64,000 bases of DNA. Source: a virus. Lineage: Duplodnaviria > Heunggongvirae > Uroviricota > Caudoviricetes. Location: IMG/VR virus record IMGVR_UViG_3300032050_000048, positions 8,476 to 72,475 of that record; one strand, given 5' to 3'. Shown here piece by piece: positions 27,362-43,832 of this stretch (its first letter is position 1; every line of letters starts with the position of its first letter). The notes under the pieces are model-generated. The model had not been told where the DNA came from. It did no database searches and saw only the letters and a list, made by a program, of their open reading frames with translations. The translations under genes and the position numbers were made by a program.

Positions 27362-27435
27362 TGTCCTGTAGACGAATTGGCAGAGTCACCTCACTTTGAA
27401 CGAGGAGTATGGAGGTTCAACCCCTTCCGGGACAA
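27362..27435 (+). tRNA. tRNA-Gln (anticodon TTG)
   Basis: Cloverleaf read by hand. Acceptor tgtcctg/cgggaca (one G-U). Anticodon loop ctTTGaa. T arm ggagg-ttcaacc-ccttc. Confidence 0.65.
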
Positions 27436-27448
27436 CAATAATAAACAT

Positions 27449-27522
27449 AGGGTAGTTGGCTAATTGGCTAAGCCGCCTCGTTTGGGACGAGGAAGATGCA
27501 GGTTCAAGTCCTGTCTACCCTA
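27449..27522 (+). tRNA. tRNA-Pro (TGG)
   Basis: Acceptor agggtag/ctaccct. D stem ggct/agcc. Anticodon stem cctcg/cgagg, loop ttTGGga. T arm gcagg-ttcaagt-cctgt. Confidence 0.8.
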
Positions 27523-27539
27523 CTAAAAAACTATAAGTT

Positions 27540-27728
27540 ATGATAACAAACGAAGAATGTGAAAAAATTTCTATCAAAGGTAAGTTGAGTGGTTTAAATA
27601 ATTACTATATTAGCCTTGTTAAAATTAGTAAGGACCCATCATATCGTGGGGATTTAAGTGAAGAACTTAAAAGAGTGGAAACAGAAATAAAAATAAACAA
27701 TCAAAAACTAATGTCTTATGAAAAGTGA
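27540..27728 (+). CDS. Small hypothetical protein located between tRNA genes
   Basis: 62-aa ORF. Confidence 0.3.
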   Translation: MITNEECEKISIKGKLSGLNNYYISLVKISKDPSYRGDLSEELKRVETEIKINNQKLMSYEK

Positions 27729-27745
27729 CAAGTATGACAAACGAA

Positions 27746-27818
27746 ACCCCTCGTAGCTTAATCGGGAAAGCACCATACTTTTAATATGGGGAGAATCGGA
27801 TCGTAACCGGTCGGGGGG
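27746..27818 (+). tRNA. tRNA-Lys (TTT)
   Basis: Acceptor cccctcg/cgggggg (U-G). Anticodon stem ccata/tatgg, loop ctTTTaa. Unusual T loop atcgtaa. Confidence 0.7.
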
Positions 27819-27828
27819 ACAAAAAACA

Positions 27829-27902
27829 CACACTCTTAGCTCAGTTGGTAGTAGCGGTTGTTTTACATACAACAGGTCATAGGTTCAAGTCCTATAGGGT
27901 GT
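27829..27902 (+). tRNA. tRNA-Val (TAC)
   Basis: Acceptor acactct/agggtgt. Anticodon stem gttgt/acaac, loop ttTACat. T arm atagg-ttcaagt-cctat. Confidence 0.75.
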
Positions 27903-28036
27903 ACAATAGGTTGATTAGGGAAGTACATAACGTTAACGTGTCAGTAGTTCGTAGTTATGTGGGAGTTTTAACTGTCATAGTAAAGCTAATCGTAAAATCA
28001 GATGTCCACAGAACCATCTTCTGATTTCCTAAACTT

Positions 28037-28117
28037 GGGAGAGTTGAGCAATTGGTTGGCTCAGCAGACTGTAAATCTGTCGCGAAAGCCTTGGGGGTTC
28101 AAGTCCCTCCTCTCCCA
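28037..28117 (+). tRNA. tRNA-Tyr (GTA), bacterial type II with long variable arm
   Basis: Acceptor gggagag/ctctccc. D arm gagc-aattggttg-gctc. Anticodon loop ctGTAaa. 13-nt variable arm. Confidence 0.8.
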
Positions 28118-28126
28118 CAACAAAAT

Positions 28127-28199
28127 GGACAAGTAGCTCAATTGGTAGAGCAATCGGCTGTTAACCGATAGGTTGTAGGATCGTACCCTTCCTTGTCCG
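28127..28199 (+). tRNA. tRNA-Asn (GTT)
   Basis: Acceptor ggacaag/cttgtcc. D arm gctc-aattggta-gagc. Anticodon stem atcgg/ccgat, loop ctGTTaa. Confidence 0.8.
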
Positions 28200-28205
28200 C
28201 AATAA

Positions 28206-28278
28206 GTTCACGTAGCTCAATTGGTAGAGTGCCGATCTGATATGTCGGAGGTAATGGGATCGTAACCCGTCGTGAACA
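28206..28278 (+). tRNA. tRNA-Ile (GAT)
   Basis: Acceptor gttcacg/cgtgaac. Anticodon stem ccgat/gtcgg, loop ctGATat. T arm atggg-atcgtaa-cccgt. Confidence 0.75.
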
Positions 28279-28435
28279 CAAAAAGAGGAATAACTTGCGT
28301 AGGTGCCTCAAGGAACTGCAGTCCTACTACGCTCTATGGAAAGTAATCCCTGAAGGCGACGGGGCATGCCTGCTAAGCATTGCGATCGGTGAGAATCCGA
28401 TTGTGGATCGTTACCACTGCTTTCCTCAACATATG

Positions 28436-28508
28436 GTGTATGTAGCTCAATCGGTAGAGCGTTGGTTTGTGGAACCAAAGGTAATGGGATCGTAACCCAT
28501 CATACACA
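28436..28508 (+). tRNA. tRNA-His (GTG)
   Basis: Acceptor gtgtatg/catacac, with an extra G immediately 5' that could be the G-1. Anticodon stem ttggt/accaa, loop ttGTGga. Confidence 0.8.
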
Positions 28509-28703
28509 CAAATAGTTCACAACGGACAAGGCTTAGGCAAGTGAGTTGAGAATGAGTCGTAGGAGATATTACCAAAATGATTAAGTTCAATAAAGGAATC
28601 GTTTGGACTACAAAAAGTTTGATACAAGAGATTGGTGGGTGGCGAGTGGTTGACCAGAACTATTTAAATATCCGATGTCGGTCCCGAGCTAGGTCGGGCA
28701 TTT

Positions 28704-28774
28704 GCGTGGTACAGACAAGGTGTCGGGTAGGTCTCCAAAACCTCACTGGGTGGGTTCAATTCCTACACCACGCG
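28704..28774 (+). tRNA. tRNA-Trp-like (CCA) with degenerate D arm (possible pseudo-tRNA)
   Basis: Acceptor gcgtggt/accacgc, G73. Anticodon arm aggt-ctCCAaa-acct as in E. coli tRNA-Trp. T arm gtggg-ttcaatt-cctac. The D region does not fold canonically. Confidence 0.4.
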
Positions 28775-28820
28775 CTAAAAATAATTTTGGTGGTTAAAAA
28801 ACTTTTTGTATCTTTGAGAT

Positions 28821-29318
28821 ATGAAAAACAGACTACCATACGAAGCAACAGGAAAGGCAATCAAAGGGTATAGTGACTCTAAAATTGCAAAAGGTGAAAC
28901 AAACGATTGTGTTGTAAGAGCATTTGCGTCCTCATTTGAGGTTTCATATGACTATGCACACAAGTATGTCGCTGAAGAGTTTAATAGACAACCAAGAAGA
29001 GGGACATTTGGGACTCCATTAAAATTTGTTAAAATGTCCGATAACAGAGTTATGATAAACGGAAAAAAAGTTCATATTGTTGGTGAAAGAAAGAACGACT
29101 ATATGTTAAGATCTTTGGATTACCCCGTTAAGGTTAAAGGTGAAGTGGTTACAAGAAAAATGACTGTTGGTACCTTTGTTAAGAAAAATCCAAAGGGAAC
29201 TTTTTTTGTACTTGTTAAAGGTCACGCTTTTACAATTAAAGATGGTGTTGTTGTTGGAAACTTTGAGGATTCTCAAAAATTGAAAAGACCGATGCGTTGT
29301 GCATTTGAAATTAAATAA
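28821..29318 (+). CDS. Hypothetical protein
   Basis: 165-aa ORF inside the tRNA island. Confidence 0.5.
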   Translation: MKNRLPYEATGKAIKGYSDSKIAKGETNDCVVRAFASSFEVSYDYAHKYVAEEFNRQPRRGTFGTPLKFVKMSDNRVMINGKKVHIVGERKNDYMLRSLDYPVKVKGEVVTRKMTVGTFVKKNPKGTFFVLVKGHAFTIKDGVVVGNFEDSQKLKRPMRCAFEIK

Positions 29319-29320
29319 AA

Positions 29321-29396
29321 GGAACTATGGTGTAAGTGTGGTGTGTCACGTTGGACTGAAAATCCAAAGGTTGGGGTTCAACTCCCTATGGTTCCA
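29321..29396 (+). tRNA. tRNA-Phe (GAA) with an over-long D region
   Basis: Acceptor ggaacta/tggttcc. Anticodon stem ttgga/tccaa, loop ctGAAaa. T arm tgggg-ttcaact-cccta. The D region is 23 nt, GT-rich. Confidence 0.6.
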
Positions 29397-29419
29397 CAAA
29401 CAAATAAATTAAGGAAATT

Positions 29420-29875
29420 ATGAACAGAGTATTCAGAAAAGTAACCGGAGAATCTGTTCCTGACATTGTAAAACATACTGTTGATATATTAAAGGAATGT
29501 CCCTGGGTTGAGGTACACATTGGTACTGACTCTCAGAATCATAGAAGAAGTACTATATATGTTACAGCAATTGCTTATAGATTTGGGAATAGGGGGGTTC
29601 ATTATATCTATCACAAACAAAAGACAAAAAAGATTAAAGATAAATGGACCAGATTATGGAATGAGGCCGATTATTCAATTGAGGTTGCAGAGTGGTTAAC
29701 CACAAAAGTGAATGTAAAGGTGGAAATAGATTTAGATTACAACAGCGACTTAAAACACTTCAGCTCAAAATTAGTCCAACCGGCTGTTGGTTGGGCGACT
29801 TCACTGGGGTACAAGACAAACATTAAACCCCACAACCAAATTGCAACAAGGGCGGCAGACCACCACTGCCGCTAA
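29420..29875 (+). CDS. Hypothetical protein
   Basis: 151-aa ORF. Confidence 0.5.
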   Translation: MNRVFRKVTGESVPDIVKHTVDILKECPWVEVHIGTDSQNHRRSTIYVTAIAYRFGNRGVHYIYHKQKTKKIKDKWTRLWNEADYSIEVAEWLTTKVNVKVEIDLDYNSDLKHFSSKLVQPAVGWATSLGYKTNIKPHNQIATRAADHHCR

Positions 29876-29879
29876 TTAT

Positions 29880-29952
29880 GAGAGGTTGTCCGAGCGGCGT
29901 TAGGTCTGTGGTTGCAACCCACAGTACGGGGGTTCAAGTCCCTCACCTCTCT
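29880..29952 (+). tRNA. tRNA-Cys (GCA) with Ser-like D arm
   Basis: Acceptor gagaggt/acctctc. Anticodon stem tgtgg/ccaca, loop ttGCAac. T arm ggggg-ttcaagt-ccctc. Confidence 0.55.
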
Positions 29953-29961
29953 CAACAAAAT

Positions 29962-30035
29962 GCCCCTATGGCGGAATAGGTATACGCGTCAGATTTAGGA
30001 TCTGAATTTTGCAGGTTCAAGTCCTGCTAGGGGTA
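29962..30035 (+). tRNA. Type-I (short variable arm) tRNA with anticodon TAG (Leu codon CUA/CUG); identity uncertain
   Basis: Acceptor gccccta/taggggt, A73. D arm gcg-gaataggtata-cgc. Perfect anticodon stem tcaga/tctga with loop ttTAGga. 5-nt variable loop. T arm gcagg-ttcaagt-cctgc. Confidence 0.6.
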
Positions 30036-30403
30036 CAAAACTTTAAAAAAATAAACGATTATGAAAACGTATGACCAACATAAGATGAAAAGAACTCAGA
30101 TCAGGGAAGACCAGGTAAAAGCCGGATTCTTTGACGGTAGATTTGTTTCCCGGGTTGAGGAGTCAAAAAATACTTACACACGAAAGATTAAACATAAAAA
30201 ACAATTTTTTGTTTAATATTTACACTTTTTAAAAGTATTATATATTTATAACAAAAATAATAAAACTGCAAATGAAAAATTTACATATCATATCTTTGAG
30301 AGGGTTAGCAGAAGCTGAGGATTCTATCTATGTGAAGATGGTGTGATAAATTAATACATAAAATATTAGAAACCCATCTTCAAAAAAGATGGGTTTTTTG
30401 TTC

Positions 30404-30443
30404 TTTGACATATTGGAAATATAAAAAATTAAATATACCTTTG
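30404..30443 (+). promoter_or_regulatory. Promoter region: GTTCTTTGA motif and Bacteroidetes-type -7 element TAccTTTG, 5 nt upstream of ATG 30448
   Basis: TAccTTTG at 30436-30443 and TTTG/TTGG upstream; preceded by a terminator hairpin cccatcttcaaaaaagatggg at 30371-30399. Confidence 0.45.
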
Positions 30444-30447
30444 TTGT

Positions 30448-30741
30448 ATGGTAAAATTTAGTGATATAAAGTTTAAACCCCATAGCATGGGTGTTGGTCT
30501 TCAGGGTACTATTTTCTTTCCGGGAGGATATGGAATTTCTTGTGTTAGATTTAAATCTCCTTTTGGTGATAGATATATGTCTTATACAAGTAACGAAGAT
30601 GAGTGGGAAGTTGCAATCCTAAAAGGTGATGAAAACAACTGGGAACTTTGTTATGATACAATTTTAACAAATGATGTTTTGGGATACCAAACAAAAGAAG
30701 ATATTGAAAAAATTATGAGATATCTTATAAGATTACATTAA
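30448..30741 (+). CDS. Hypothetical protein
   Basis: 97-aa ORF. Confidence 0.45.
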   Translation: MVKFSDIKFKPHSMGVGLQGTIFFPGGYGISCVRFKSPFGDRYMSYTSNEDEWEVAILKGDENNWELCYDTILTNDVLGYQTKEDIEKIMRYLIRLH

Positions 30742-30745
30742 AAAG

Positions 30746-30777
30746 ATTTGGTAGATTAAAAAATTTGACATATCTTT
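30746..30777 (+). promoter_or_regulatory. Bacteroidetes-type promoter (TTTG, 20-nt spacer, TAtcTTTG)
   Basis: TTTG at 30746-30749, TAtcTTTG at 30770-30777. Followed by a gtaagacaaa leader and a GTTCTTTGA motif at 30844-30852. Confidence 0.5.
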
Positions 30778-30779
30778 GT

Positions 30780-31250
30780 AAGACAAACGATGGGGGTAGG
30801 AAGTTTAGAAATTGGTATCCTACCCCCAGATAAAGGGAAAAAAGTTCTTTGAAAACATTGTGATTTATTACACTAAAGCGAGGGGGAAAACTTTAGGTAG
30901 TATGTGTTGAACTAGCTTGCTCCGACTAGCACGGTCTAATCCGCCGTGAAGCATTTAATAATGGAGTAATGATGCTGATACATATAAATCACAACTTTTT
31001 AAAATATTGTGGTGGTAAGAAAAGGTGAACTCGTTAAGTTCATAGACCTGTTGACAAAAGATGGTGAAACGAGTGTGGTTGTCAACTACTGTATCACAGA
31101 TATAGCAGGCGGGAGGTAGAGGATCTCACCGGTCTCATAAGCCGGTTTAACTTGGTGCGATTCCAAGGCGTTGCTACAACAAAAAGGGTGGATAGGTGGG
31201 AGGGCCTTTCCTAAAAGACGGCACGCTAGGCCCGTGTTCACCCTTAAAAT
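30780..31250 (+). ncRNA. Candidate structured noncoding transcript A (about 470 nt between the promoter and tRNA-Asp; class unknown)
   Basis: No credible ORF. GC-enriched relative to the surrounding DNA. Hairpins such as gggggtagga...tcctaccccc. Ends at tRNA-Asp. Confidence 0.35.
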
Positions 31251-31322
31251 GGTCCATTGGTGTAGTGGCTAACATACATCCCTGTCACGGATGTGCTCCG
31301 GGTTCAATTCCCGGATGGACCG
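31251..31322 (+). tRNA. tRNA-Asp (GTC)
   Basis: Acceptor ggtccat/atggacc. Anticodon stem catcc/ggatg, loop ctGTCac. T arm ccggg-ttcaatt-cccgg. Confidence 0.8.
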
Positions 31323-31351
31323 CTAAACAATTAAAAACTAAACAAAATGAA

Positions 31352-31573
31352 ATGTTAAAGTTTAAACTGGGGTTGTGGGGTGTTGTAGGTACCACAATGA
31401 TTTACATCTACATAATGAATTTATTTTTCAGTTATGTAATCAACCGGGAGGTTGATGAAATCCTACAAATCGGTGCTAGTTTTATAGCTTTATTCTACAC
31501 CGTTTTTCAAATAAAGCTAATAGTAAAAGAAATAACAAATTTATTTAACAAAAAAGAAAAAGAAAATGATTAG
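31352..31573 (+). CDS. Small membrane protein
   Basis: The track ORF 31196..31573 overlaps tRNA-Asp, so an internal in-frame ATG at 31352 was chosen. MLKFKLGLWGVVGTTMIYIYIMNLFF is hydrophobic. Confidence 0.4.
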   Translation: MLKFKLGLWGVVGTTMIYIYIMNLFFSYVINREVDEILQIGASFIALFYTVFQIKLIVKEITNLFNKKEKEND

Positions 31574-32468
31574 TTTGATTGTAACATTAGTGTTTTTGAT
31601 TATCGCAGGGGTGATGATTGTAAAAGGTAAAATTAACGATGAGTCCTCAAGTATTCTAAAAGGAGTTGTTGTTGGTGTTGTGGGTGTATTGATTGGCGTA
31701 TTCCAACCATACTCACTTGAGAGAATTGACGCCGGTCACAAAGGTATTGTGGTTAACTTGTCCGGATCTGAAAGAGGGGTTGCTTCATATCAGTACAAAA
31801 CTGGGTGGGTTGTTTATAACACCTGGTTCACGCAAGTTCTTGAGTTCCCAACCTTTCAACAACATATTGAGTATGATGATCAGGTTGTAATTACAAAGGG
31901 TGGGTTCTCAGCAACTATTAAACCATCGTTTAACTACTCGTTGAAACCGGAAGCAATTGGTGATATGTTTGAAAACCTACGATTGGGTGTTAAAGAAATT
32001 GAACAAGGGTGGCTTAAAAACGCAATTGTTGGGGCGGTTAATGATGAAGCAAATAAATGGGAAGTTGATAGTATTTTTTCTAATCGTCAACAGTTTGAAG
32101 CGGCAATTGTTGTTGAGTGTAATAAACGATTAACAAAGTGGTTTGATGTGTCACAACTTAGAACAAACATTACACCACCGGAGGCGCTCCAGGAATCAAT
32201 TATTGCAAAAACAAAAGCTATCCAACAAGCTGAAGCCTCCGAGCAACAAGCAATTGCTGCAATTGCAGAAGGAAAACGTAAGGTGGCTGTCGCAAGAGCC
32301 GACTCGGCAGAAACAATTATCAACGCAAAAGCGGCATCACTTGCAATTGAGTTGAAACAACAAAAACTAACACCGATGTATATTGAGTATTTGAAGGCAA
32401 ATGCTTGGGATGGTAAACTTCCAACAACAATGGCAGGCAGTTCTGGAACGTTTTTGAATATTAAATAA
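31566..32468 (+). CDS. SPFH/band-7 (prohibitin/stomatin-like) family protein
   Basis: N-terminal TM helix, then GHKGIVVNLSGSERGV...; a coiled-coil AIQQAEASEQQAIAAIAEGKRKVAVARADSAE typical of the SPFH fold. Confidence 0.7.
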   Translation: MISLIVTLVFLIIAGVMIVKGKINDESSSILKGVVVGVVGVLIGVFQPYSLERIDAGHKGIVVNLSGSERGVASYQYKTGWVVYNTWFTQVLEFPTFQQHIEYDDQVVITKGGFSATIKPSFNYSLKPEAIGDMFENLRLGVKEIEQGWLKNAIVGAVNDEANKWEVDSIFSNRQQFEAAIVVECNKRLTKWFDVSQLRTNITPPEALQESIIAKTKAIQQAEASEQQAIAAIAEGKRKVAVARADSAETIINAKAASLAIELKQQKLTPMYIEYLKANAWDGKLPTTMAGSSGTFLNIK

Positions 32469-32473
32469 AAAGA

Positions 32474-32505
32474 TTTGGAGGATTGAAAAATTCTCCTTAT
32501 CTTTG
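32474..32505 (+). promoter_or_regulatory. Bacteroidetes-type promoter (TTTG, 20-nt spacer, TAtcTTTG)
   Basis: TTTG at 32474-32477, TAtcTTTG at 32498-32505. Followed by a gtaaaacaaa leader and GTTCTTTGA at 32526-32534. Confidence 0.5.
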
Positions 32506-32509
32506 TAAA

Positions 32510-32775
32510 ACAAATAAGGAAAGAAGTTCTTTGAAATAATAGATTGGTAAGATAGCAGATAGACCTACGTCAGCAGACTCTCATAGAGAATCAGAAATGA
32601 TGAGTAAAACGGAGCCCCTATCAGACTAACGTGTTGAGGAGGTACTCAAAGTTTTCCGGGAGGTTAACTGGTAATAAACGATGGTTTGGGTAGAACGGAT
32701 GTTAAAGGCGAGGTGTGGGTAGTAAGGATGGGGTAACCCACGAATAAGTAAATCTTAAGGTCTTACCATTTTTTA
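32510..32775 (+). ncRNA. Candidate noncoding RNA B (about 265 nt, promoter to terminator-like hairpin plus T-run)
   Basis: No ORF. Ends with gtaag...cttac followed by ATTTTTT around 32746-32775. Confidence 0.35.
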
Positions 32776-32928
32776 AAAATCTAAATCACGGGTGGCTCCC
32801 TTAATAGTTAAGGCTGACCTTAAGCATCTGACGCATGTCTATACAGGGGGCGAAAGTGATTTAAAATATTGTAATGAACAACGCGACCGCAGGAGTTGTA
32901 CCTTTATGGTTTTGTAATGTGGTTTTAT

Positions 32929-33003
32929 GTTCCGTTCGTCTAGCTGGTTTAGGACACTTCCCTTTCACGGAAGAGATCATGGGTTCAAATCCCATACGGA
33001 ATA
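32929..33003 (+). tRNA. tRNA-Glu (TTC)
   Basis: Acceptor gttccgt/acggaat. D arm gtc-tagctggtttag-gac. Anticodon stem cttcc/ggaag, loop ctTTCac. T arm atggg-ttcaaat-cccat. Confidence 0.8.
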
Positions 33004-33013
33004 CAAAAAATAT

Positions 33014-33087
33014 GGTCCCGTAGCTCAGCTGAATAGAGCAACGCCCTTCTAAGGCGAAGGTCACAGGTTTGAATCCTGTCGGGACTA
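33014..33087 (+). tRNA. tRNA-Arg (TCT)
   Basis: Acceptor ggtcccg/cgggact. D arm gctc-agctgaata-gagc. Anticodon loop ctTCTaa. T arm acagg-tttgaat-cctgt. Confidence 0.8.
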
Positions 33088-33233
33088 CAAAAAATTAAAA
33101 GTTATGAATTATACAATAGAAAAGAAATGTCATGCTTGGATAGGAATATGGTGGCAAGTTAAGGAAGATAAAGAGATAGTCTTTAAGAGCAAACGAAAAA
33201 AAGATTGTGTGTTCTACGTGAACAGTAAAAAAT

Positions 33234-33338
33234 AGTCAGGTGGCGGAATTGGTAGACGCACCTCAACACCCTGGGGTTGAGACATTAAATGAGGGTTAAC
33301 AATGGGTCTCTTATAGGTTCAAATCCTGTCCTGACTAC
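33234..33338 (+). tRNA. Atypical 105-nt type-II tRNA-like gene (Leu-type D arm; anticodon region expanded or unresolved)
   Basis: Acceptor agtcagg/cctgact. D arm gcggaattggtagacgc is identical to E. coli tRNA-Leu. T arm atagg-ttcaaat-cctgt. About 18 nt too long between the D and T arms; no clean 7-nt anticodon loop. Confidence 0.35.
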
Positions 33339-33601
33339 ACGTGGTAGGGTTCATCACCCCCTAGTGTGCCCCACATAATGAGAAACGGAGTGATATCCGT
33401 AGGGGAACGTACATTGTCGTATAGGGAGAACGACTGGGAAAGTAAGTTGTATTAGATACAGTGGAAACGCACATCTCAACAGAGGTGGACTGAAAGTTTG
33501 CCCGACCTGGGTTGAGGACGAAAGAAACTATTTCTAACCTACCTTTTTGGTGGGGACAACCGGAGCACCTGTAAGCTGAATAAATTAGGGTGTTAACAAA
33601 G
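33339..33601 (+). ncRNA. Candidate structured spacer RNA E between the two atypical type-II tRNA-like genes
   Basis: About 260 nt, GC-enriched, no ORF. Confidence 0.25.
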
Positions 33602-33690
33602 GCAAGTGGCGAAATCGGCAGACGCTAAGGTAGATCTAACTAAGATTGTACCGAGACAATGTAAAAGTTGTCGTATAGGTTCAAATCCTT
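33602..33690 (+). tRNA. Atypical type-II tRNA-like gene (Leu/Ser-type D arm gcgaaatcggcagacgc; anticodon unresolved)
   Basis: Acceptor aggcaag/cttgtct (G3-U70). T arm atagg-ttcaaat-ccttt. A hairpin gacaa...ttgtc in the variable region. No canonical anticodon arm found. Confidence 0.3.
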
Positions 33691-33879
33691 TCTTGTCTAC
33701 AAATACAATTAAAAGATGAATATGTTATTGTTTGTATCATTTGTTTTGTTTATACTTTTAATAGGTAGAAAAAAAAGAAAATATTAACTTCAGTACCCAT
33801 ACAGCGGTGAGACGGGCTAAGTAAGATACGATTCCTCGGGGCTGGGAGTAGAATGCTGAAGAAATATTTTCTAAAATAT

Positions 33880-33959
33880 GCTCCGATGGTGAAATTGGTA
33901 TACACGATGCGTTTAAGCCGCATTCCTACGGGGTGAGGGTTCAAATCCCTCTCGGAGTA
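33880..33959 (+). tRNA. tRNA-Leu (TAA), type II
   Basis: Acceptor gctccga/tcggagt. Anticodon stem atgcg/cgcat, loop ttTAAgc. 11-nt variable arm. T arm gaggg-ttcaaat-ccctc. Confidence 0.75.
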
Positions 33960-34062
33960 CTGTTGTGTTATTCCCTTGAGAAAGGAATTACGGTGGGATA
34001 TGGTCTTGATTTGGATTTAACCTAGTATGAATCACAACACAGAGGACTTCTCATCCTCAACC

Positions 34063-34136
34063 GGACCTTTAACTCAGTTGGTCAGAGTGCTTGACTCATA
34101 ATCAAGGAGTCGTAGGTTCAAACCCTACAAGGTCCA
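34063..34136 (+). tRNA. tRNA-Met (CAT); could instead be an fMet or Ile2 (lysidine) type
   Basis: Acceptor ggacctt/aaggtcc. D arm actc-agttggtca-gagt. Anticodon stem cttga/tcaag, loop ctCATaa. T arm gtagg-ttcaaac-cctac. Confidence 0.75.
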
Positions 34137-34151
34137 CACCGCTTAAGATGC

Positions 34152-38193: not shown

Positions 38194-38352
38194 ATGTCAG
38201 AAGATAATTTTAATGAAGTAGAAAATAAGGAACCCCAAATGTTTGGGTATCGTGATTCTGCTGGGAACCTACTTTGGACTCCCAACCAGGAATTTGCGAA
38301 ACTTAGAGCATACCATTTTGGGACTTATGATGTCTACACAGAAAAAAATTAA
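38194..38352 (+). CDS. Small hypothetical protein (52 aa; not in ORF track)
   Basis: MSEDNFNEVENKEPQMFGYRDSAGNLLWTPNQEFAKLRAYHFGTYDVYTEKN. Confidence 0.3.
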   Translation: MSEDNFNEVENKEPQMFGYRDSAGNLLWTPNQEFAKLRAYHFGTYDVYTEKN

Positions 38353-38370
38353 AAAAAAGTTCATAAAGTA

Positions 38371-38402
38371 CTTGACAAACTGAAAAAAGTGTCGTAACTT
38401 TG
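38371..38402 (+). promoter_or_regulatory. Bacteroidetes-type promoter (CTTG, 20-nt spacer, TAacTTTG)
   Basis: TAacTTTG at 38395-38402. Followed by a gtaaaacaaa leader and GTTCTTTGA at 38431-38439. Confidence 0.5.
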
Positions 38403-38404
38403 TA

Positions 38405-39372
38405 AAACAAATTCGGAAACGTCCGAAATCGTTCTTTGAAAAATTAGAATATCCATTCAGAATGTTTGATGATGAAATCCTTGCGGTTGATTCTGAGTAA
38501 CAAACTGATAAAGATATTTGGCCGTATATAGTCAATAAATAAACTGGGAAACCAGGATAAAGTGGGTCAGTAGTGTAACTGATCTGCGGTTTGGGTAACC
38601 GAACTTAAGTATACAAGCGGGATACCGTTTAACCTTTAGTACCGAGGGCAACGCTGTAGGGAAAGTGGTTAGATGATTGGGCGATGTGGGTCGTCCGGTT
38701 GAGGTGGGAACACCAATAGGAATAACTCGTAGGGATATTGCAAAAAATAAGATTATCCAATTTTATTATTGCGTGTCCCAATATCAGAGGATACTTAAAA
38801 CCGAAAGGTATGATAACAAACAGGTGGTGCTGACATTATCCTTGACCCTTGCCTACCAAGGCATAAGTCACGAAGTAATCTTAAAATATTGAGATGGGGA
38901 CATTTCAGAGAGTAGTTGAGTATCGGCTCGTTCAAAAGATGAGCTGGCTCTGGTGGCGGACCACTACTTTCATAATCCACGACACAAAAACCTAAGAAAA
39001 AATTATGAAATTAATTTAATCAGAAAGGAAAAGTGTCCGTCAGGTTTGGATGAAAGGTGACTACATAGTAATGAGCCGTTCATTGCACACAAGGATCCCA
39101 AGTCTAAGTGTAATTATCCGAAAAACCTTTAGTCCCGCAAGGACGAACTGGGGAGGCATCCTCGGAAAGAGTCAAGTAAGGTGAGAGTAGTCCAAATCTC
39201 AAGGAGTGGTTCCCCTAAGTGACCGTCACTGAGAAATACTTCTCAAAAGGAAGTGGATAGGAGTAGAATAAATAATGACTCTAAAGGTTCTCAATAAAAC
39301 GTGTAATCTCAACGTTCTTTTTAGGTTTAATCTTATAAGACAAAAAAAATTAGTAGGGACAGGAAACTGATC
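38405..39372 (+). ncRNA. Candidate large (about 0.95 kb) structured noncoding RNA, promoter to terminator (GOLLD/ROOL-like?)
   Basis: No ORF over 71 aa, and the reading frames are broken. GC-enriched. Ends with the aggga...tccct hairpin plus TTTTTTT at 39345-39372. Sits beside the tmRNA and the tRNA island. Confidence 0.35.
39345..39372 (+). terminator. Rho-independent terminator of the large candidate ncRNA
   Basis: Hairpin aggga-caggaaactga-tccct followed by TTTTTTT. Confidence 0.55.
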
Positions 39373-39439
39373 CCTTTTTTTGTTTACACAAAAATATAGA
39401 AATCGTACAGCAATAATATATAATTTTAAGACATAAAAA

Positions 39440-39467
39440 AACCCCATCGTATGATGAGGTTATTAAT
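39440..39467 (-). terminator. Rho-independent terminator of tmRNA (minus strand)
   Basis: Minus-strand hairpin cctcatc-atac-gatgggg followed by TTTTTTT, directly after the CCA end. Confidence 0.65.
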
Positions 39468-39858
39468 TGGTGGAGATGCGGGGCTCCGACTCCCCGGTCC
39501 AGCTCGTCTTGTTTAAAAGACCACTACATGCTTAGGTTGGTATTTTCTAATACCCCAAAATAGTTGATTTGTTCTTTTCCATCGTAAATCAACAACCAAT
39601 GGTTTCTAATCCGGATTTAGAGAGCCGACCAGGTTGCTCTATAAAACTACGACTTCTGTTGCTAGGCTATATGTCTGCCGGCCCCCGGTTTTTGTTGCGA
39701 TTACGCTACAGCAACCTCAGAAGTGCGGATTAACCCAACAGCTTCCATTTTGTTTAGCACATTGCCATTTAAAAAGTGAATCAGTTTTTAACGAGATTAA
39801 TTCAGTCCCGACATGCTCCTTTTATTCAACCAACGCCTGTCAAATCCAATACATCCCC
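39468..39858 (-). ncRNA. ssrA: tmRNA (transfer-messenger RNA, SsrA), one-piece, CCA-encoded
   Basis: Minus-strand 5' end GGGGATGTATTGGATTTGACAGG matches the E. coli tmRNA 5' end GGGGCUGAUUCUGGAUUCGACGGG. The 3' end CTAAGCATGTAGT...GGACCGGGGAGTCGGAGCCCCGCATCTCCACCA matches the conserved 3' end. Acceptor ggggatg/catctcc has G3-U70. Internal tag frame ...TSEVAVA-TAA. Confidence 0.85.
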
Positions 39859-39924
39859 GTATATTGTAAATGACTATTATCAAAGAACTATATATAAATA
39901 CAAATATAAACATATTTATACTAT

Positions 39925-40959
39925 ATGCCAACAAATACATACGAATTTTTAAAACAAATTGCAAAAGGTGAGGACTCAGGGTATAATAGATGGAATTACC
40001 CGGATGACTTAATCCACGATATTCGTATTAACGAAAAAAACCCATTGGCATCACAAATTACTTTAGATTTTGATAAGGACAGTGACTTCCTAGAGATATT
40101 AGGTGTTGATGAAAATGACGCCTGGACATATAACTATATAATGTATGGCGACTCTAGTGACTGGGATTGGTATACCTATAGAGATGAATGGAAAGAAGGA
40201 TACATTTTAGATGGTTTTAACAATGAGAATAAAGAAAAATTTGAAAAAATTGTAAGACTATCACTTTCACCAAAAACTTCAGTAAGAAGTGATATTTTAA
40301 ATGGAATACTTGGGATTTATGAAGATCAAGTAGAAAATATCATTTCGGCATATGCAAATGAAAATGAAAGATGTCAAATTGATGGGGCTAAAGAAATTAT
40401 AAGACGAGAAACAGAAAAACCATTTGATAGATTTGGAATTATTGAAGTATGGCACGGATCCAGATTTAAAACAACAGTTGGTATTTTACTTAATTGGTAT
40501 AGAATGTTAAAAATGGAAGATGATGATATTAAACATCTTCTTAAATCTTTATTTGAAAAATATAACCCAAAAAGTGATATTGGTGGTTGGGAAGAGATTA
40601 GATATAACTCATTTTGTGATGACTATGATTCAGAAGGAGTCCAAATGGAGATTAGTCACGAACTTGACAAAATAATTGAGATAATTGAAGAAGAAGGGGT
40701 TCACGACGAGTTTCAAAAAATATATGATGTTGTTGTAAAACTTGGAGGGTTCAATAAAATGCTTGATTTAAAAGAAAAGGAAATATCTGTTATATTTGAT
40801 AGTATTGATCCACATACCGGACAACTAGTTTTTAAATTATATAAAAAAGGTGGTAAGATGGAAAAAAGAAGTGTTGACAATCTTGAGGATCTTTATTTAA
40901 ATTTATACCACCCAGAATTATTTGAAAGTGTTAAAGATATTTTAAATAGAATTTTGTAG
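39925..40959 (+). CDS. Hypothetical protein
   Basis: 344-aa ORF. Confidence 0.5.
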   Translation: MPTNTYEFLKQIAKGEDSGYNRWNYPDDLIHDIRINEKNPLASQITLDFDKDSDFLEILGVDENDAWTYNYIMYGDSSDWDWYTYRDEWKEGYILDGFNNENKEKFEKIVRLSLSPKTSVRSDILNGILGIYEDQVENIISAYANENERCQIDGAKEIIRRETEKPFDRFGIIEVWHGSRFKTTVGILLNWYRMLKMEDDDIKHLLKSLFEKYNPKSDIGGWEEIRYNSFCDDYDSEGVQMEISHELDKIIEIIEEEGVHDEFQKIYDVVVKLGGFNKMLDLKEKEISVIFDSIDPHTGQLVFKLYKKGGKMEKRSVDNLEDLYLNLYHPELFESVKDILNRIL

Positions 40960-40987: not shown

Positions 40988-41773
40988 ATGGAAAGAAATT
41001 TTGAATTACTAAAAAAGGTCCTTTCGGTTCCGACTAAGACCTACCAGGAAGATTTAATGATTGAGTTTATTGTTGACTGGCTTGAGTCAAAGAATATTCC
41101 ATTTTATCTGGACCAATACTATAATGTATATGCTACAAAACAAACAGATACCAATATTGAGTATTTTCCTTGTGTTGTAGCCCACACAGACACTGTTCAC
41201 AATATTGATACAATAAATGTCGTTGAGGAGATGCTTCCAAACGCACAGAAAGAGATAAAACTAGCACTTAAAGCTTATAACGATAAAGGAGAACCAACCG
41301 GTATTGGTGGTGATGATAAATGTGGCGTATTTGCCTGTCTTGAACTTCTTGAGGAAATGCCAAACCTAAAAGCTGCGTTCTTTGTTGCTGAAGAAACTGG
41401 ATGTAAAGGGTCATTTAACTCAGATTCGGCTTTCTTTGAAAACGTGGGTTATGTTATTCAGTTTGATGCACCAGAAAATAATATGATTTCTGAGTTTCTT
41501 ATGAGTGCGCCAATGTTTACCCGGGATAGTGATTTCTTTAAGGTTGGTGGAAGGTTGATTACAGAACATTTCCCAAAGGACACAAAATACCATAGACATC
41601 CATATACGGATATTTATCCTTTAAATCAAAGATATAAGATATCTTGTTTTAATATCTCAATTGGTTATTACAACTACCACACAAGAAATGAGTACGTTGT
41701 TATTGATGATACATACAACGGAATAAAGGTAGGTAAGTTAATGATTGAGGAACTTGGTTATACCAAACATTAA
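40988..41773 (+). CDS. MH-clan zinc peptidase (M20/M28/M42-like aminopeptidase/hydrolase)
   Basis: VAHTDTVH, GGDDKCGVFACLELLEE and AEETGCKGS give the His/Asp metal ligands, the GxDDKxG motif and the Glu-Glu pair. Confidence 0.6.
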   Translation: MERNFELLKKVLSVPTKTYQEDLMIEFIVDWLESKNIPFYLDQYYNVYATKQTDTNIEYFPCVVAHTDTVHNIDTINVVEEMLPNAQKEIKLALKAYNDKGEPTGIGGDDKCGVFACLELLEEMPNLKAAFFVAEETGCKGSFNSDSAFFENVGYVIQFDAPENNMISEFLMSAPMFTRDSDFFKVGGRLITEHFPKDTKYHRHPYTDIYPLNQRYKISCFNISIGYYNYHTRNEYVVIDDTYNGIKVGKLMIEELGYTKH

Positions 41774-41776
41774 AAA

Positions 41777-41799
41777 AGGAGGGTTTTTAACCCTCCTTT
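41777..41799. terminator. Bidirectional terminator between convergent peptidase and Clp ATPase genes
   Basis: Hairpin aaggagggtttttaaccctcctt. Confidence 0.6.
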
Positions 41800-43832
41800 T
41801 TCTTTCTACCCCTTTTAGGTTTATTCTCAATAAGAACATCAATCTTAATTTCCTTATCTACAACTGTCAATTTATAATCAACATCTTCTAGAACTTCATT
41901 TAGTAATATTTTCTCAGAGATAAGGTCTTCAATTTTATCCTGGATTGCCCTTTTAATTGGTCTTGCACCAAATTGTTCATCAAACCCAACCTCAGATATC
42001 AATTCAACAACTGACTCATCGTATGTAATTTTATATTTCATTGACTCAATTCTGTTAACTAACTTCTCAATTTCAATTTTAACAATCCGGTCAACGTGCT
42101 CTTTTTTAAGCGAGTTAAAGACAATAACGTCATCAATTCTATTTAGGAATTCTGGAGCGAAGAACTTACTTAATTCTTTTTTGAGGATATCTCTTTTTTC
42201 TTCTTCTCTTACTGCTTCACTACTATTTGATTTAAACCCAACTCCAGTTCCAAAATCCTGTAATTTTCTAACACCAATATTTGATGTCATAATAATTAAA
42301 CAATTTTTGAAGTTAATTTTTCTTCCAAGTCCGTCGGTCATATGCCCGTCATCAAGCATTTGAAGAAGTGTTGAGAAGATATCTTTATTTGCCTTTTCAA
42401 TCTCATCAAATAAGATAACAGAGTATGGTTTATTTTTAACCTGTTCTGTAAGCTGTCCACCCTCTTCGTGACCAACATATCCTGGAGGAGAACCGATAAG
42501 CCTTGATATAGTATGTTTTTCCTGATATTCAGACATATCAACACGAATCAAACTATCTTCACTACCAAAAATTTCTTTTGCTAGTTTCTTTGCAAGATAT
42601 GTTTTACCAACACCGGTTGACCCAAGGAAGATAAATGAACCAATTGGTCTATTTGGGTCCTTAATTCCAATTCTATTTCTTCTAATGGATTTTGATATTT
42701 TTGTTACCGCTTCAGCCTGACCAATTACATAGCTATTTAGTGCGTTCTCTAAATTAACAAGAGAGTTTTTCTCGTCAACATTAATTTTGCTTACCGGGAT
42801 TTTAGTCATTTTAGAAACAACCTCATAAATTAAATCTTCCGGAATTACTCTTTTACTATTTCTAAGTTCTTCCTCAAATTTTAATCTTTCGGCATCAAGT
42901 GATGACATTACTGATTTTTCCCGGTCCCTTAACTCAGCAGCCATTTCGTATTTCTGTTTTTTTATAACGTCAGACTTCTCCTTTTTAATTTCAAGAAGTT
43001 CTTGTTTTAGATTTTCAATACTTTCAGGAAGTTTAATATCAATTTGCATTCTTGACCCAACCTCATCAATAATATCAAAAGCTTTATCCGGAAACTCACG
43101 ATCTGTAATATATCTATCGGCAAGTTCTACACATAAAAGAAGTGATTCGTCTGAATATGTTACCTTGTGATGTTCTTCATACTTTTCTTTACTATTTTTT
43201 AAAATTTGAAAAGTTTCAGCCTTTGTTGATGGTTCTACAATTACTTTCTGGAATCTTCTCTCAAGAGCTCCATCCTTCTCAAAATGCTTTCTATATTCAT
43301 CAAGGGTTGTAGCACCAATACATTGGATTTCACCCCTAGAAAGGGCCGGTTTAAAGATGTTTGAGGCATCAAGTGAACCAGAACTATTACCAGCACCAAC
43401 CATTGTATGAATCTCATCAATAAAAAGAATAATGTTTGGATTACTTTGAAGTTCCTCAATTATTACTTTCATTCTTTCCTCAAATTGTCCACGATATTTT
43501 GTACCGGCAACAATTGAATTCATCTCAAGGGAAACAATTCTTTTCTCTGAAAGATTTTTAGGACATTCACCACTATGAATCATCATTGCCAACCCTTCTA
43601 CAATTGCTGTTTTACCACAACCTGGTTCACCGATAATAATAGGGTTGTTTTTCTTTCTTCTAGATAAAATTTGTGCAATTCTAATAATTTCATCTTCTCT
43701 ACCTATTACAGGGTCTAATTTACCTTCTTGAGCTAACTTATTTAAGTCTTTACTAAAGTTGTCTAGAACCGGAGTTCCACTATCACTTTTTTTCTTGTTC
43801 TTGTCGTTGTCATCAATGAATTCTATTGCCAT
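41787..43832 (-). CDS. ClpC/ClpA-like class I AAA+ unfoldase (two ATPase domains, UVR-type middle domain, VGF ClpP-docking loop; no Clp_N domain)
   Basis: Walker A motifs [15 protein letters not shown] and [15 protein letters not shown]. Middle domain [21 protein letters not shown] tripeptide loop. N-terminus begins about 50 residues before the first Walker A. Confidence 0.85.

Follow-up and report, generated by a model that had tools for sequence, protein, structure and literature searches.

The window analysed here is a stretch of 64,000 nucleotides from a tailed phage, and its minus strand carries a real, selected tmRNA (ssrA) gene, with a fold shown by covariation and a tag reading frame under purifying selection at the protein level. 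The gene belongs to an essentially viral lineage, in which it keeps company with genes for a ClpC-type unfoldase without the N-terminal domain and for an M20-family peptidase. This co-inheritance of tmRNA, ClpC and M20 suggests a viral tag-and-destroy kit, whose tag would most likely be a phage-specific degron. tmRNAs have been described from phages before; the novelty of this one lies in its ClpC/M20/GOLLD context. That conserved neighbourhood and the non-canonical T-loop of the RNA, the parts of interest here, were absent from an earlier note made from the sequence alone. Table 1 collects the features discussed.

Table 1. Features of the tmRNA locus, in window coordinates
Feature	Position	Strand	Description or basis
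GOLLD RNA, conserved 3′ domain	38908–39315	+	Convergent with tmRNA; Rfam RF02032, 319.1 bits (threshold 150)
Intrinsic terminator	39433–39461	−	9-bp hairpin (39461–39440) and T-run, 6 nt 3′ of CCA; terminator scan
tmRNA (ssrA) gene	39468–39858	−	391 nt, one-piece, CCA encoded; Rfam RF00023 and covariation
T-arm, acceptor 3′ strand, discriminator A, CCA	39468–39496	−	Stem CGGGG/CCCCG, 8-nt loop
Tag frame	39701–39766	−	Resume codon GGC (39766–39764), 21 codons, stop UAA (39703–39701)
Frame-setting adenosine	39770	−	4 nt 5′ of resume codon; equivalent to E. coli A86
Pseudoknot PK1	39777–39810	−	nt 49–53/63–67 and 55–60/77–82, upstream of tag
Acceptor stem, 5′ strand	39852–39858	−	GGGGAUG (tmRNA nt 1–7); pairs with CAUCUCC (39472–39478), 7 bp
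Upstream signals	39880–39908	−	TATATTTG (39908–39901, TAnnTTTG type) and motif GTTCTTTGA (39888–39880)
Protein of 344 aa	39925–40959	+	Function unassigned; directly 5′ of tmRNA
M20-family metallopeptidase, 261 aa	40988–41773	+	Catalytic domain only; Pfam, phrog_4191, motifs
ClpC-type double-ring AAA+ unfoldase without N-domain, 681 aa	41787–43832	−	Structure relatives, Pfam
Protein with two UVR motifs, 127 aa	43992–44375	+	Like McsA C-terminus and ClpC M-domain

The tmRNA gene and its fold

Rfam model RF00023 matches the minus strand exactly at the ends given in Table 1, aligning over the full model (positions 1–374 of 374) with 86.7 bits against a gathering score of 47 (E 2.9e-32); relatives in the family score 52–115 bits. 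Read from 39858 to 39468, the gene starts GGGGATGTATTGGATTTGACAGG and ends ...CTAAGCATGTAGTGG...GGACCGGGGAGTCGGAGCCCCGCATCTCCACCA. The earlier note had placed a minus-strand tmRNA with these boundaries and ends and had named a covariance-model search as the check, and the full-length match bears it out. Its reading of an alanine-identity G3–U70 pair and an encoded CCA likewise stands: the third acceptor pair is G3·U70 in the window and G·U in all 30 relatives compared, and the stem is followed by the discriminator A and CCA (ACCA).

Covariation was scored in 30 diverse relatives over 63 modelled pairs. Overall 91.2% of cells were paired, against 36–47% in slid controls, with 39 compensated pairs, and none of 500 shuffles matched the observed covariation values. 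The acceptor helix is 97.6% paired, its pairs 4–7 covarying (CG/GC/UA and others), and the five base pairs of the T-stem are 99.2% paired, with compensatory changes in three of the four pairs scored. Two helices 3′ of the tag are well supported (columns 186–189/205–208, 100% paired; columns 372–380/388–397, 99.2%). Of the pseudoknots, whose folding the earlier note had also proposed, PK1 is supported: its stems pair in 84.7 and 82.2% of cells and show compensatory changes, and the cells that do not pair belong mainly to the seven most distant, poorly aligned sequences. Helix H5 in the form read off the window (nt 144–148/161–165) is not conserved (47.6% paired). Since there are at least 136 distinct homologues with compensatory covariation, the match is far beyond chance. 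In five relatives, group I introns interrupt the tmRNA in its T-arm region, which implies that the gene must be spliced to work.

The RNA has in common with E. coli SsrA and other bacterial one-piece tmRNAs (RF00023) a tRNA-like domain (TLD) with G3·U70 and CCA, a long H2 and PK1. Shared with them too are a conserved A that precedes the resume codon by four nucleotides, an internal open reading frame running to a stop, and additional helices before the T-arm.

A minus-strand terminator directly after the gene, as claimed earlier, was found as a hairpin and T-run, and nearly all of the 30 relatives inspected have the same arrangement 3′ of the tmRNA. On the 5′ side, GTTCTTTGA precedes the tmRNA in almost all 30. 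This motif occurs seven times in the window, at the tRNA array, at GOLLD and at the tmRNA, against 0.94 expected, and none of 100 shuffles reached seven. A scan for sigma-70-type promoters gave weak candidates only; GTTCTTTGA and the TAnnTTTG box look more relevant than these.

The tag frame and the T-loop

From GGC to GCG UAA the tag frame reads GNVLNKMEAVGLIRTSEVAVA-stop, or 22 residues together with the tmRNA-borne alanine. That the frame ends in AVA, and that the tag might be unusually long, had both been noticed from the letters; it is now the sole conserved frame, open in all 95 unique relatives, whereas the other two are closed in 95 and 89 of the 95. Its pN/pS is 0.58; the other frames give 0.85 and 2.5, and a downstream non-coding control gives about 1.1. 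The entropies of the codon positions of the tag frame (0.94/0.45/1.10) mark the second position as the most constrained. Selection therefore acts on the encoded peptide, which we take as strong indication that the tag is translated. An A stands four nucleotides before the resume codon in 95 of 95 relatives, with variable flanking positions except that −5 is always a pyrimidine; the role of the E. coli counterpart, A86, in setting the tmRNA frame has been described (PMC2481249).

All 21 residues are conserved along the whole length of the tag, beyond the C-terminal tripeptide. The search pattern behind the first family sample fixed the last three codons, making the conserved C-terminus partly an ascertainment artefact in that sample; re-sampling with a pattern outside the tag returned the same tags and C-termini. 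At 21 encoded residues against the 10 of E. coli SsrA (ANDENYALAA), the tag is more than twice the typical length, and it ends in V-A/T-V-A across the family rather than in ALAA. None of the proteins of the window ends in a tag-like peptide.

The T-loop of the window tmRNA is a non-canonical 8-nt AGUCGGAG (39484–39491, minus strand) instead of the canonical 7-nt UUCRANN of bacterial tmRNAs (RF00023). It keeps the U-C of positions 55–56, has one extra 5′ base and carries G in place of A58. Such an 8-nt loop, AGUCRRAG, is present in 25 of the 136 unique relatives, the others being canonical; within this sub-clade the loop sequence stays the same as the T-stem covaries. Because stem, covariance-model score and tag are all conserved, we treat the 8-nt loop as a variant inside the tmRNA family.

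ARAGORN, the other check named in the earlier note, called no tmRNA on the native window sequence, the 8-nt loop being what blinds it: when the loop was swapped in silico to UUCGAAU, the gene was detected. The tag that ARAGORN then reported, ATKTGGRQTYSLATEVVVL, was rejected, as its frame is stopped in 74 of 95 relatives and lies in a region without coding signature; in two relatives, L033 and L024, the program does call the homologous tag frame. It misses 106 of the 136 family members (about 78%), including all 25 with the 8-nt loop. Published surveys used ARAGORN, so the frequency of phage tmRNAs is probably underestimated.

Distribution and neighbouring genes

At least 136 distinct relatives were found in viral contigs, the contigs of family members reaching 321 kb, and more than 117 viral contigs, among the matches listed, fit the tmRNA pattern. 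A scan of cellular genomes (185,579 species, 596 Gb) gave a single relative, on a 668-bp fragment, the other 58 of its 59 pattern matches being chance matches, and blastn of the window tmRNA found nothing similar among 50,697 deposited phages. The carriers are probably a large group of aquatic phages with Bacteroidota hosts. Bacteroidetes had been guessed before as the host phylum, and the guess fits the rarity of Shine–Dalgarno use (3 of 57 window ORFs), the TAnnTTTG boxes and the Cellulophaga hosts of the nearest cultured relatives.

Phage tmRNAs have been reported from Bxz1-group mycobacteriophages, Bacillus phage G and huge phages, and in two-piece form from the pelagiphage/OM43 phage Melnitz (PMC4131195, PMC7162821, PMC9004378). 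The earlier note called them rare; they are uncommon, at about 2.3% of phage genomes, yet well documented (PMC9004378). All are phage-borne ssrA genes, usually accompanied by tRNA arrays, and some huge phages also carry SmpB; the lineage of the window differs in belonging to another tag family and in having no blastn likeness to deposited phages. Linkage to ClpC(ΔN), M20 and GOLLD is a property of the window family that goes unreported in those papers (PMC4131195, PMC7162821, PMC9004378).

The window unfoldase has S. aureus and B. subtilis ClpC as its best solved relatives (E 1.6e-216, ClpC residues 149–806), with Pfam domains AAA, AAA_lid_9, AAA_2 and ClpB_D2-small and an alignment that spans the M-domain region. 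Its N-terminal Clp repeat domain was not found: there is no Clp_N match, and the protein starts at about ClpC residue 149. That domain is the binding site for MecA and phospho-arginine. Because Clp_N is absent we call the protein ClpC-like and N-domain-less rather than canonical ClpC. All 80 phage homologues keep the Walker A and B motifs of either ring intact, along with conserved pore loops, KYRG and GY[VI]G. Residues 530–533 of the window protein read GVGF, and G[VIM]GF is present in 80 of 80 homologues, corresponding to the [VIL]-G-[FL] loop that we take to be the ClpP-docking element of ClpC.

The M20 assignment draws on a marginal match to Pfam Peptidase_M20 (25.8 bits; cut-off 24.6), on phrog_4191 ‘peptidase’ (E 2.6e-34) and on the HxD, bridging Asp and Glu-Glu motifs, of which AHTDTVH, GGDDKCG and AEETG align with those of PepD; the lid/dimerisation domain is missing. 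The UVR protein matches Pfam UVR (E 9.4e-13), with 8wtb_B, a protein-arginine kinase activator, as best PDB match and the McsA C-terminus as best NCBIfam match, at 47 bits, which is far under the cut-off; it occurs in 28 of 65 family loci.

The linkage of the first two genes to the tmRNA is tight. Among family loci with enough flank, ClpC is present in 84 of 85, always upstream and on the tmRNA strand, and M20 in 101 of 103, always between ClpC and the tmRNA and in either orientation relative to the latter (48 opposite, 53 same). Where at least 4.5 kb of upstream sequence is available, ClpC(ΔN) is found in 67 of 69 loci and M20 in 68 of 69; conversely, 51 of 52 ClpC-like loci have the tmRNA, so that tmRNA and ClpC are linked at about 98% both ways. 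The association outlasts divergence of the proteins (47% identity for M20, 33% for the 344-aa protein), inversion of M20 and turnover of nearby genes.

GOLLD, whose transcript probably starts near 38440, lies downstream of the tmRNA in 53 of the 94 family loci with enough flank, convergent in 52 of the 53, and is missing from about 40%. It forms nanocages and is reported to pull down ribosomes (PMC12286853). About 10 relatives encode SmpB (Pfam PF01668, 151–177 bits) 0.3–1.3 kb from the tmRNA, which points to use of the RNA in trans-translation. Neither SmpB nor ClpP was found in the window, and a search of 2.7 Mb of related flanks with an E. coli ClpP sequence likewise turned up no ClpP. In the huge phage LR745206 a ClpC homologue lies beside GOLLD with no tmRNA within 12 kb of it; on this evidence the ClpC–tmRNA link does not extend to huge phages.

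The flavobacterial phages phi38:1, phi40:1 and Calle (Pervagoviridae) of Cellulophaga, of which phi38:1 and Calle are cultured, have, besides a tRNA array, a one-piece tmRNA that Rfam scores at 87 bits and that is too diverged in nucleotide sequence for the family profile. Their tag of 22 residues, AQIEANMEAVNAILNLEVAVGV, is in the same register as that of the family from the resume codon (MEAV..I...EVAV), and tagged proteins of phi38:1 and Calle would end ...AAQIEANMEAVNAILNLEVAVGV. When tested by shuffling, the Calle tag resembles the family only modestly: p is about 0.01 over all columns and rises to about 0.11 when the last four are dropped. The tmRNA of Calle and phi38:1 lies ~1.25 kb from a homologue of the window M20 peptidase, the only one of 89 ORFs that these two have in common with the window. 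These phages differ from the window family in having no annotated ClpC and no GOLLD; their T-loop is canonical and CCA is not encoded.

Proposed function and alternatives

We consider it probable, on present sequence evidence, that this is a functional phage tmRNA that adds a phage-specific degron by trans-translation, and that the degron is read by the linked ClpC(ΔN) with help from M20. The anatomy of the RNA leads us to infer the following life cycle. Transcription would start from the gene's own promoter region with GTTCTTTGA and stop at the intrinsic terminator; the RNA would mature to GGGG...CCA and be charged with alanine by host AlaRS through G3·U70. SmpB, coming from the host in the window phage and supplied by some relatives themselves, would bring it to stalled ribosomes, where translation would restart at GGC, four nucleotides past the invariant A, add alanine plus GNVLNKMEAVGLIRTSEVAVA and stop at UAA. 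A role for ClpC and M20 is suggested by gene linkage: the N-domain-less unfoldase would recognise the tag, dock on host ClpP and degrade the tagged chains, and M20 would help to cut the resulting peptides to amino acids. During infection, ribosomes would be freed and amino acids recycled. With neither ClpP nor SmpB found in the window, the model needs both from the host, and a SmpB that accepts the abnormal T-loop.

Tag reading by AAA+ unfoldases has precedents. ClpA and ClpX recognise the ssrA tag; that of E. coli is read by ClpXP/SspB and by ClpAP, and the long tags of Mycoplasma tmRNA are read by Lon. The concept of a tmRNA tag as a degron read by an AAA+ unfoldase, at times helped by an adaptor on the N-terminal part of the tag, is common to these systems and to ours, and they show that tag and protease are able to co-evolve. 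The proposed reader here would differ from them in being virus-encoded, beside the tmRNA, and a ClpC without the adaptor-binding N-domain.

A more far-reaching version, which we put forward only tentatively, is that of an orthogonal, portable viral kit: the tmRNA would write a private 22-residue degron onto each stalled chain, ClpC(ΔN) would read it and commandeer host ClpP, and M20 would finish the work, down to amino acids. GOLLD and the occasional SmpB would then belong to the same ribosome-directed module, and the 8-nt T-loop would be an adaptation, for example an escape from a host factor that targets canonical T-loops, and no defect.

A working phage tmRNA could instead merely keep ribosomes free, its products being handled by host ClpXP, Lon, FtsH or Tsp, with ClpC and M20 linked by ancestry and given to other jobs such as host takeover or the folding and quality control of phage proteins. 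The phages that supplied the family loci are all related, and the synteny may reflect the ancestry of one large phage group. Calle and phi38:1 carry tmRNA and M20 with no annotated ClpC, LR745206 has its ClpC homologue without a nearby tmRNA, and M20-like peptidases are also found in many unrelated phages, including those of other hosts (Klebsiella, Vibrio). Host ClpX, moreover, might plausibly read the small hydrophobic V-A/T-V-A end, which we take to resemble canonical ssrA ends. Ancestry has to contend, however, with a linkage that holds in both directions through protein divergence, M20 inversion and gene turnover, and the conservation of all 21 tag residues suggests a dedicated reader, something more than the general C-terminal contact that a ClpX-type unfoldase would make. 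We think this explanation rather unlikely.

Returning to the degron, the length of the tag and its conservation throughout would also suit a translated peptide that is no degradation signal and, for instance, directs rescued chains to a phage structure or the GOLLD cage, or stabilises or inactivates them. The conserved convergent position of GOLLD, its nanocage and the reported ribosome pull-down (PMC12286853) lend this some appeal. Yet in its C-terminal chemistry the tag resembles known degrons, a peptidase and an unfoldase with a ClpP-docking loop stand out as the most strongly conserved neighbours, and GOLLD is lacking at two loci in five or so; we regard such a role as improbable.

Less probable still is a decoy: instead of serving as a template, the RNA would tie up host SmpB, AlaRS or EF-Tu and so shut down host trans-translation, its abnormal T-loop making it defective on the ribosome. 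Mycobacteriophage DS6A has a molecule with the TLD only, for which a decoy role was suggested (PMC4131195), and the departure of the T-loop from the canonical sequence and the lack of SmpB in the window would agree with one; but the tag frame is under purifying selection with its frame-setting A kept, most family members combine a canonical T-loop with the same tag, and some relatives add their own SmpB. Finally, although prophage borders often carry host ssrA 3′ ends, many ssrA matches lie at contig ends and ARAGORN is silent on the window, the reading as a pseudogene in decay, or as a piece of host ssrA acquired at a prophage attachment site, is effectively refuted by the scarcity of the lineage in cellular genomes (that one short fragment), by selection on the tag frame and by the extensive covariation, in a full-length gene with its own promoter motif and terminator and with no integrase found nearby.

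Why phages carry tmRNAs has been debated since the first mycobacteriophage cases, with the freeing of ribosomes and the recycling of host protein among the proposals, but with little that could be put to the test. The probable tag-and-degradation function set out above would give that debate a concrete handle, as a long virus-specific tag is inherited with an unfoldase, a peptidase and sometimes SmpB. The question becomes directly testable as whether or not the viral ClpC degrades proteins that bear the tag, and phi38:1 or Calle on Cellulophaga may be a suitable cultured system. GOLLD, an RNA nanocage of unassigned function, is now tied to a neighbourhood of ribosome rescue and proteolysis.

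The tmRNA gene and its unusual T-loop

The earlier note proposed a phage tmRNA gene on the minus strand, and the sequence from 39858 down to 39468 reads exactly as described there. Rfam model RF00023 (gathering score 47) matches this interval over model positions 1-374 of 374, with 86.7 bits (E 2.9e-32), and the terminator said to follow at once was found as a 9-bp hairpin and T-run, 6 nt past the encoded CCA. ARAGORN, the other check suggested, called 17 tRNAs in the window and no tmRNA. It is blind to the native gene because the T-arm carries, within a CGGGG/CCCCG stem, the 8-nt loop AGUCGGAG in place of the canonical 7-nt loop; when the loop was swapped in silico for UUCGAAU or UUCGGAG, a 390-nt tmRNA was detected in the same place. 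Among 136 unique members of the family of homologous viral tmRNAs, ARAGORN misses 106, including all 25 with an 8-nt loop, and it recovers the complete family tag in only about nine.

The CCA is encoded in all 3′-end types with the 8-nt T-loop and unencoded in about half of the distinct types with canonical T-loops. In five family tmRNAs (L066, L084, L142, L039 and L106) the T-arm region is interrupted by a group I intron (Rfam Intron_gpI, 71-95 bits). Several mechanical ORFs of 54-79 aa overlap the window tmRNA, and a 191-aa gene called across the GOLLD/tmRNA region of a near-identical metagenome contig (L310:4267-4842) is probably spurious, lying over RNA genes.

A different phage tmRNA (L001:1957-2314, Rfam 115 bits), on the 152-kb viral contig IMGVR_UViG_3300008255_002756, matches the window tmRNA exactly over the 34 nt of its 3′ end, 8-nt T-loop and acceptor strand included. 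It has a short, canonical-looking tag, ANDNAFAPVAQAA, and neither M20 nor ClpC was found in its 1.9-kb upstream flank. This case suggests that the tRNA-like domain and tag module are exchangeable, or that the tRNA-like domain is tuned to a shared host.

Features of the window around the tmRNA gene and elsewhere
Feature	Coordinates	Strand	Remarks
Sigma-70-family factor	111-569
tRNA array	27159-34137	+	17 genes
RNaseH_like ORF	29420-29875		within tRNA array
Band_7 ORF	31566-32468		within tRNA array
GTTCTTTGA sites	27244, 30400, 30844, 32526, 38431	+
GTTCTTTGA sites	35400, 39888	-
'ORF' near GOLLD	38269-38535	-
'ORF' near GOLLD	38677-38892	+
GOLLD RNA	38908-39315	+	Rfam 319 bits; 150 nt from tmRNA 3′ end, convergent
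Terminator hairpin	39461-39440	-
tmRNA	39468-39858	-
Mechanical ORFs	39569-39964	both	overlap tmRNA
M20 metallopeptidase	40988-41773		261 aa, catalytic domain only; between ClpC and tmRNA
ClpC-like AAA+ ATPase	41787-43832	-	681 aa, double-ring; 2 kb upstream of tmRNA, same strand
UVR protein			127 aa, two UVR motifs; beyond ClpC
Fibre-like ORF	52346-54466
Laminin_G_3 proteins	54468-60579	+	paralogues of ~240 aa
Fibre-like ORF	58470-59849

The viral family, its tag and its fold

A blastn search of 50,697 deposited phages returned nothing similar. Relatives were retrieved from IMG/VR viral contigs by DNA patterns: one anchored on the tag end and a conserved downstream element matched more than 117 contigs, and a second, lying wholly outside the tag, matched 33, of which 18 were new. 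The total is 210 loci with a family member (136 distinct full-length sequences), on contigs of 4 to 321 kb; a near-identical module is found in environmental metagenomes (ENA ERZ28593657, JGI 3300045029). The tag-anchored pattern was also run on one genome per species for 185,579 bacterial and archaeal species. Among its 59 matches, 58 were rejected by the family profile and one was accepted, on a 668-bp contig in the bin of a Nanopelagicales MAG. As far as that pattern can show, the tmRNA lineage is viral.

Every family member has an ORF in the same frame, of 21 or occasionally 22 codons. The tag is GNVLNKMEAVGLIRTSEVAVA in the window and, for example, GNVLNKMETLGLLRGSEVTVA, GNVLNNLETLGLISTQEVTVA and GETFAKLQAVGLLRTEEVTVA in relatives; the homologous frame is called independently by ARAGORN in two relatives with canonical T-loops (L033 and L024). 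Translation would resume at GGC in 93 of 100 unique sequences, and mean entropy at codon positions 1, 2 and 3 is 0.94, 0.45 and 1.10. Over codons 1-18, which the search pattern leaves unconstrained, the proposed frame has a Nei-Gojobori pN/pS of 0.58; the values for the other two are 0.85 and 2.5, and all frames of a downstream non-coding control give approximately 1.1. In 95/95 sequences the proposed frame is open, and the other two are closed in 95/95 and 89/95. The C-termini VTVA, VAVA and EVVA recur in a family sample drawn independently of the tag, and the conserved C-terminus is therefore no ascertainment artefact.

An A stands 4 nt upstream of the resume codon in 95/95 sequences, always preceded by a pyrimidine, while its neighbours vary; in E. 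coli, frame choice depends mainly on A86, which likewise stands 4 nt before the resume codon (PMC2481249). After the loop swap ARAGORN called a rival tag, which a stop interrupts in 74 of 95 relatives. With the tmRNA-borne alanine the tag has 22 residues; it is more than twice the length of E. coli ANDENYALAA and ends in V-A/T-V-A rather than ALAA.

RNAalifold on an alignment of 30 diverse members gave 47 pairs, 33 with compensatory changes, and PK1 and H5 were added by hand for a total of 63 scored pairs. Over these, 91.2% of cells are paired, versus 36-47% after sliding the 3′ partners by 1-3 columns; both sides change in 39 pairs, and 0/500 shuffles attained the observed pairing values. By element, pairing is 97.6% in the acceptor stem (G3·U70 in 30/30; four pairs covary), 95.2% in H2 and 100% at its top, 84.7% and 82.2% in stems 1 and 2 of PK1, 100% in an internal helix (columns 186-189/205-208), and 99.2% in both an internal hairpin (columns 372-380/388-397) and the T-stem. 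H5 as drawn from the window is unsupported across relatives, because just 47.6% of its cells pair.

Neighbouring genes, linkage and likely host

Among solved structures the ClpC-like protein is closest to ClpC of S. aureus and of B. subtilis (E 1.6e-216); the alignment covers ClpC residues 149-806, so the phage protein has no N-domain, the part of ClpC to which the adaptor MecA and phospho-arginine substrates bind. All 80 phage homologues examined keep both Walker A/B pairs intact, conserve pore loops KYRG and GY[VI]G, and have a G[VIM]GF tripeptide where ClpC carries its ClpP-docking VGF loop. The M20 protein keeps its HxD, bridging-Asp and Glu-Glu motifs, and the UVR protein weakly resembles the McsA C-terminus and ClpC M-domain.

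Among family loci with enough flank, ClpC is present in 84/85, without exception on the tmRNA strand and upstream of the tmRNA, and M20 in 101/103, always between the two, in opposite orientation in 48 and the same in 53. A 344-aa protein (45/117) always lies directly upstream of the tmRNA, and the UVR protein (28/65) upstream on the opposite strand. With at least 4.5 kb upstream, the counts are 67/69 for ClpC and 68/69 for M20. In the reverse search, which began with the ATPase, relatives are encoded on at least 598 viral contigs. Of the closest 80 (68-87% identity), 52 extend at least 4 kb downstream; in 51 of the 52 a family tmRNA lies 1.7-5.7 kb off on the strand of the ATPase.

Of 94 loci with enough flank, 53 have GOLLD (RF02032) downstream of the tmRNA, convergent in 52 of the 53; in the window GOLLD probably extends 5′ to ~38440. 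The two 'ORFs' listed near it are probably portions of its variable 5′ domain rather than genes; in the huge phage LR745206, too, a match to the 38677 'protein' lies just upstream of GOLLD. SmpB (144-145 aa; Pfam PF01668, 151-177 bits) is encoded in approximately ten family loci, 0.3-1.3 kb downstream of the tmRNA and convergent with it (L043:6557-6961, L229:639-1043, L273-L275, L281, L302). Neither SmpB nor ClpP was found in the window; ClpP was not found in 2.7 Mb of related flanks either, a weak negative, the query being an E. coli sequence.

The best cultured M20 matches (32-33% identity) are in Cellulophaga phages Calle, phi38:1 and phi40:1 (Pervagoviridae), in none of which a Clp ATPase is annotated. 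Calle has an annotated tmRNA ~1.25 kb from its M20 homologue, and phi38:1 has the same tmRNA (L316:4327-4686, Rfam 87.6 bits; NC_021796.1, roughly 26805-27164), unannotated in RefSeq, with hypothetical CDS gp041 called over it. Their identical tag, AQIEANMEAVNAILNLEVAVGV, is in register with the family tags when aligned from the resume codon (MEAV..I...EVAV); its homology to the family tags is suggestive rather than established, because the shuffle test gives p ~0.01, and ~0.11 without the last four columns. The Calle tmRNA does not match the family nucleotide profile. The M20 gene is the only one of 89 window ORFs with a detectable Calle homologue, and the occurrence of a tmRNA beside M20 in a genome so unrelated in other respects speaks for a pairing that goes beyond block inheritance; by rough estimate, such proximity would arise by chance in a 73-kb genome a few per cent of the time.

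The uncultured 635-kb LR745206 (L317; LR745206.1, 411341-437215) encodes an N-domain-less ClpC homologue, 60% identical, with GOLLD and tRNAs 2 kb away. No tmRNA lies within 12 kb of this gene, so the ClpC-tmRNA link is strong inside the window's phage group, not universal; a ClpC-GOLLD link may exist that does not depend on the tmRNA.

The window has a G+C content of ~30%, and its proteins include a holin of the Pam3 gp28 family, a DUF3310 protein, GH19 and M23 lysis-type enzymes and glycosyltransferases; many ORFs match nothing. The Laminin_G_3 (concanavalin-like) proteins form a fibre-like run adjoining large fibre-like ORFs, probably a diversified set of receptor-binding proteins. The tRNA array (Thr, Gln, Pro, Lys, Val, Tyr, Asn, Ile, His, Phe, Cys, two Leu, Asp, Glu, Arg, Met; no tRNA-Ala) is interspersed with small ORFs.

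A Shine-Dalgarno core precedes 3/57 ORFs of at least 100 aa, the 6% background level. The 9-mer GTTCTTTGA lies 5 or ~22 nt upstream of the mature tmRNA 5′ end in almost all of 30 relatives inspected, usually with TAnnTTTG before it. It occurs seven times in the window (0.94 expected; 0/100 shuffles attain seven), four times in the tRNA array, once ~480 nt upstream of the GOLLD match, where GOLLD is presumed to start, and once upstream of the tmRNA, with TAnnTTTG before three of the seven. GTTCTTTGA is probably a shared promoter or leader signal of the phage's RNA genes. TAnnTTTG is the -7 promoter box of Bacteroidota; since it is present and the nearest cultured phages with the neighbouring peptidase infect Cellulophaga (Flavobacteriaceae), we infer that the host is likely a member of the Bacteroidota.

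A phage tmRNA and the possible fate of tagged proteins

Phage tmRNAs are known in mycobacteriophages and Bacillus phage G (PMC4131195), together with SmpB in huge phages (PMC7162821), and in ~2.3% of phage genomes by ARAGORN (PMC9004378); that of Calle is mentioned solely as a count (PMC8776804). The open-access papers and preprints that we found do not discuss this tag or the variant T-loop, nor any linkage to ClpC, M20 or GOLLD. The window very probably encodes a functional phage tmRNA with this tag. Good support for a working tmRNA comes from the fold, from selection on the frame, from the frame-setting A, from the SmpB genes of some relatives, and from the retention of group I introns in the T-arm region of five relatives.

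For the fate of tagged proteins, which we infer, the main alternative is that linkage to ClpC and M20 is historical and that host proteases handle the tag. We favour, tentatively and at somewhat less than even confidence, a coupling of ClpC and M20 to the tag specifically, because 21/21 residues are conserved, the C-terminus is small and hydrophobic, and linkage to a peptidase and an unfoldase with a presumed ClpP-docking loop is near-invariant. Under such coupling the tag would be a degron read by the phage's own ClpC-type motor with host ClpP, and the M20 enzyme would act on peptides from ClpC/ClpP degradation.
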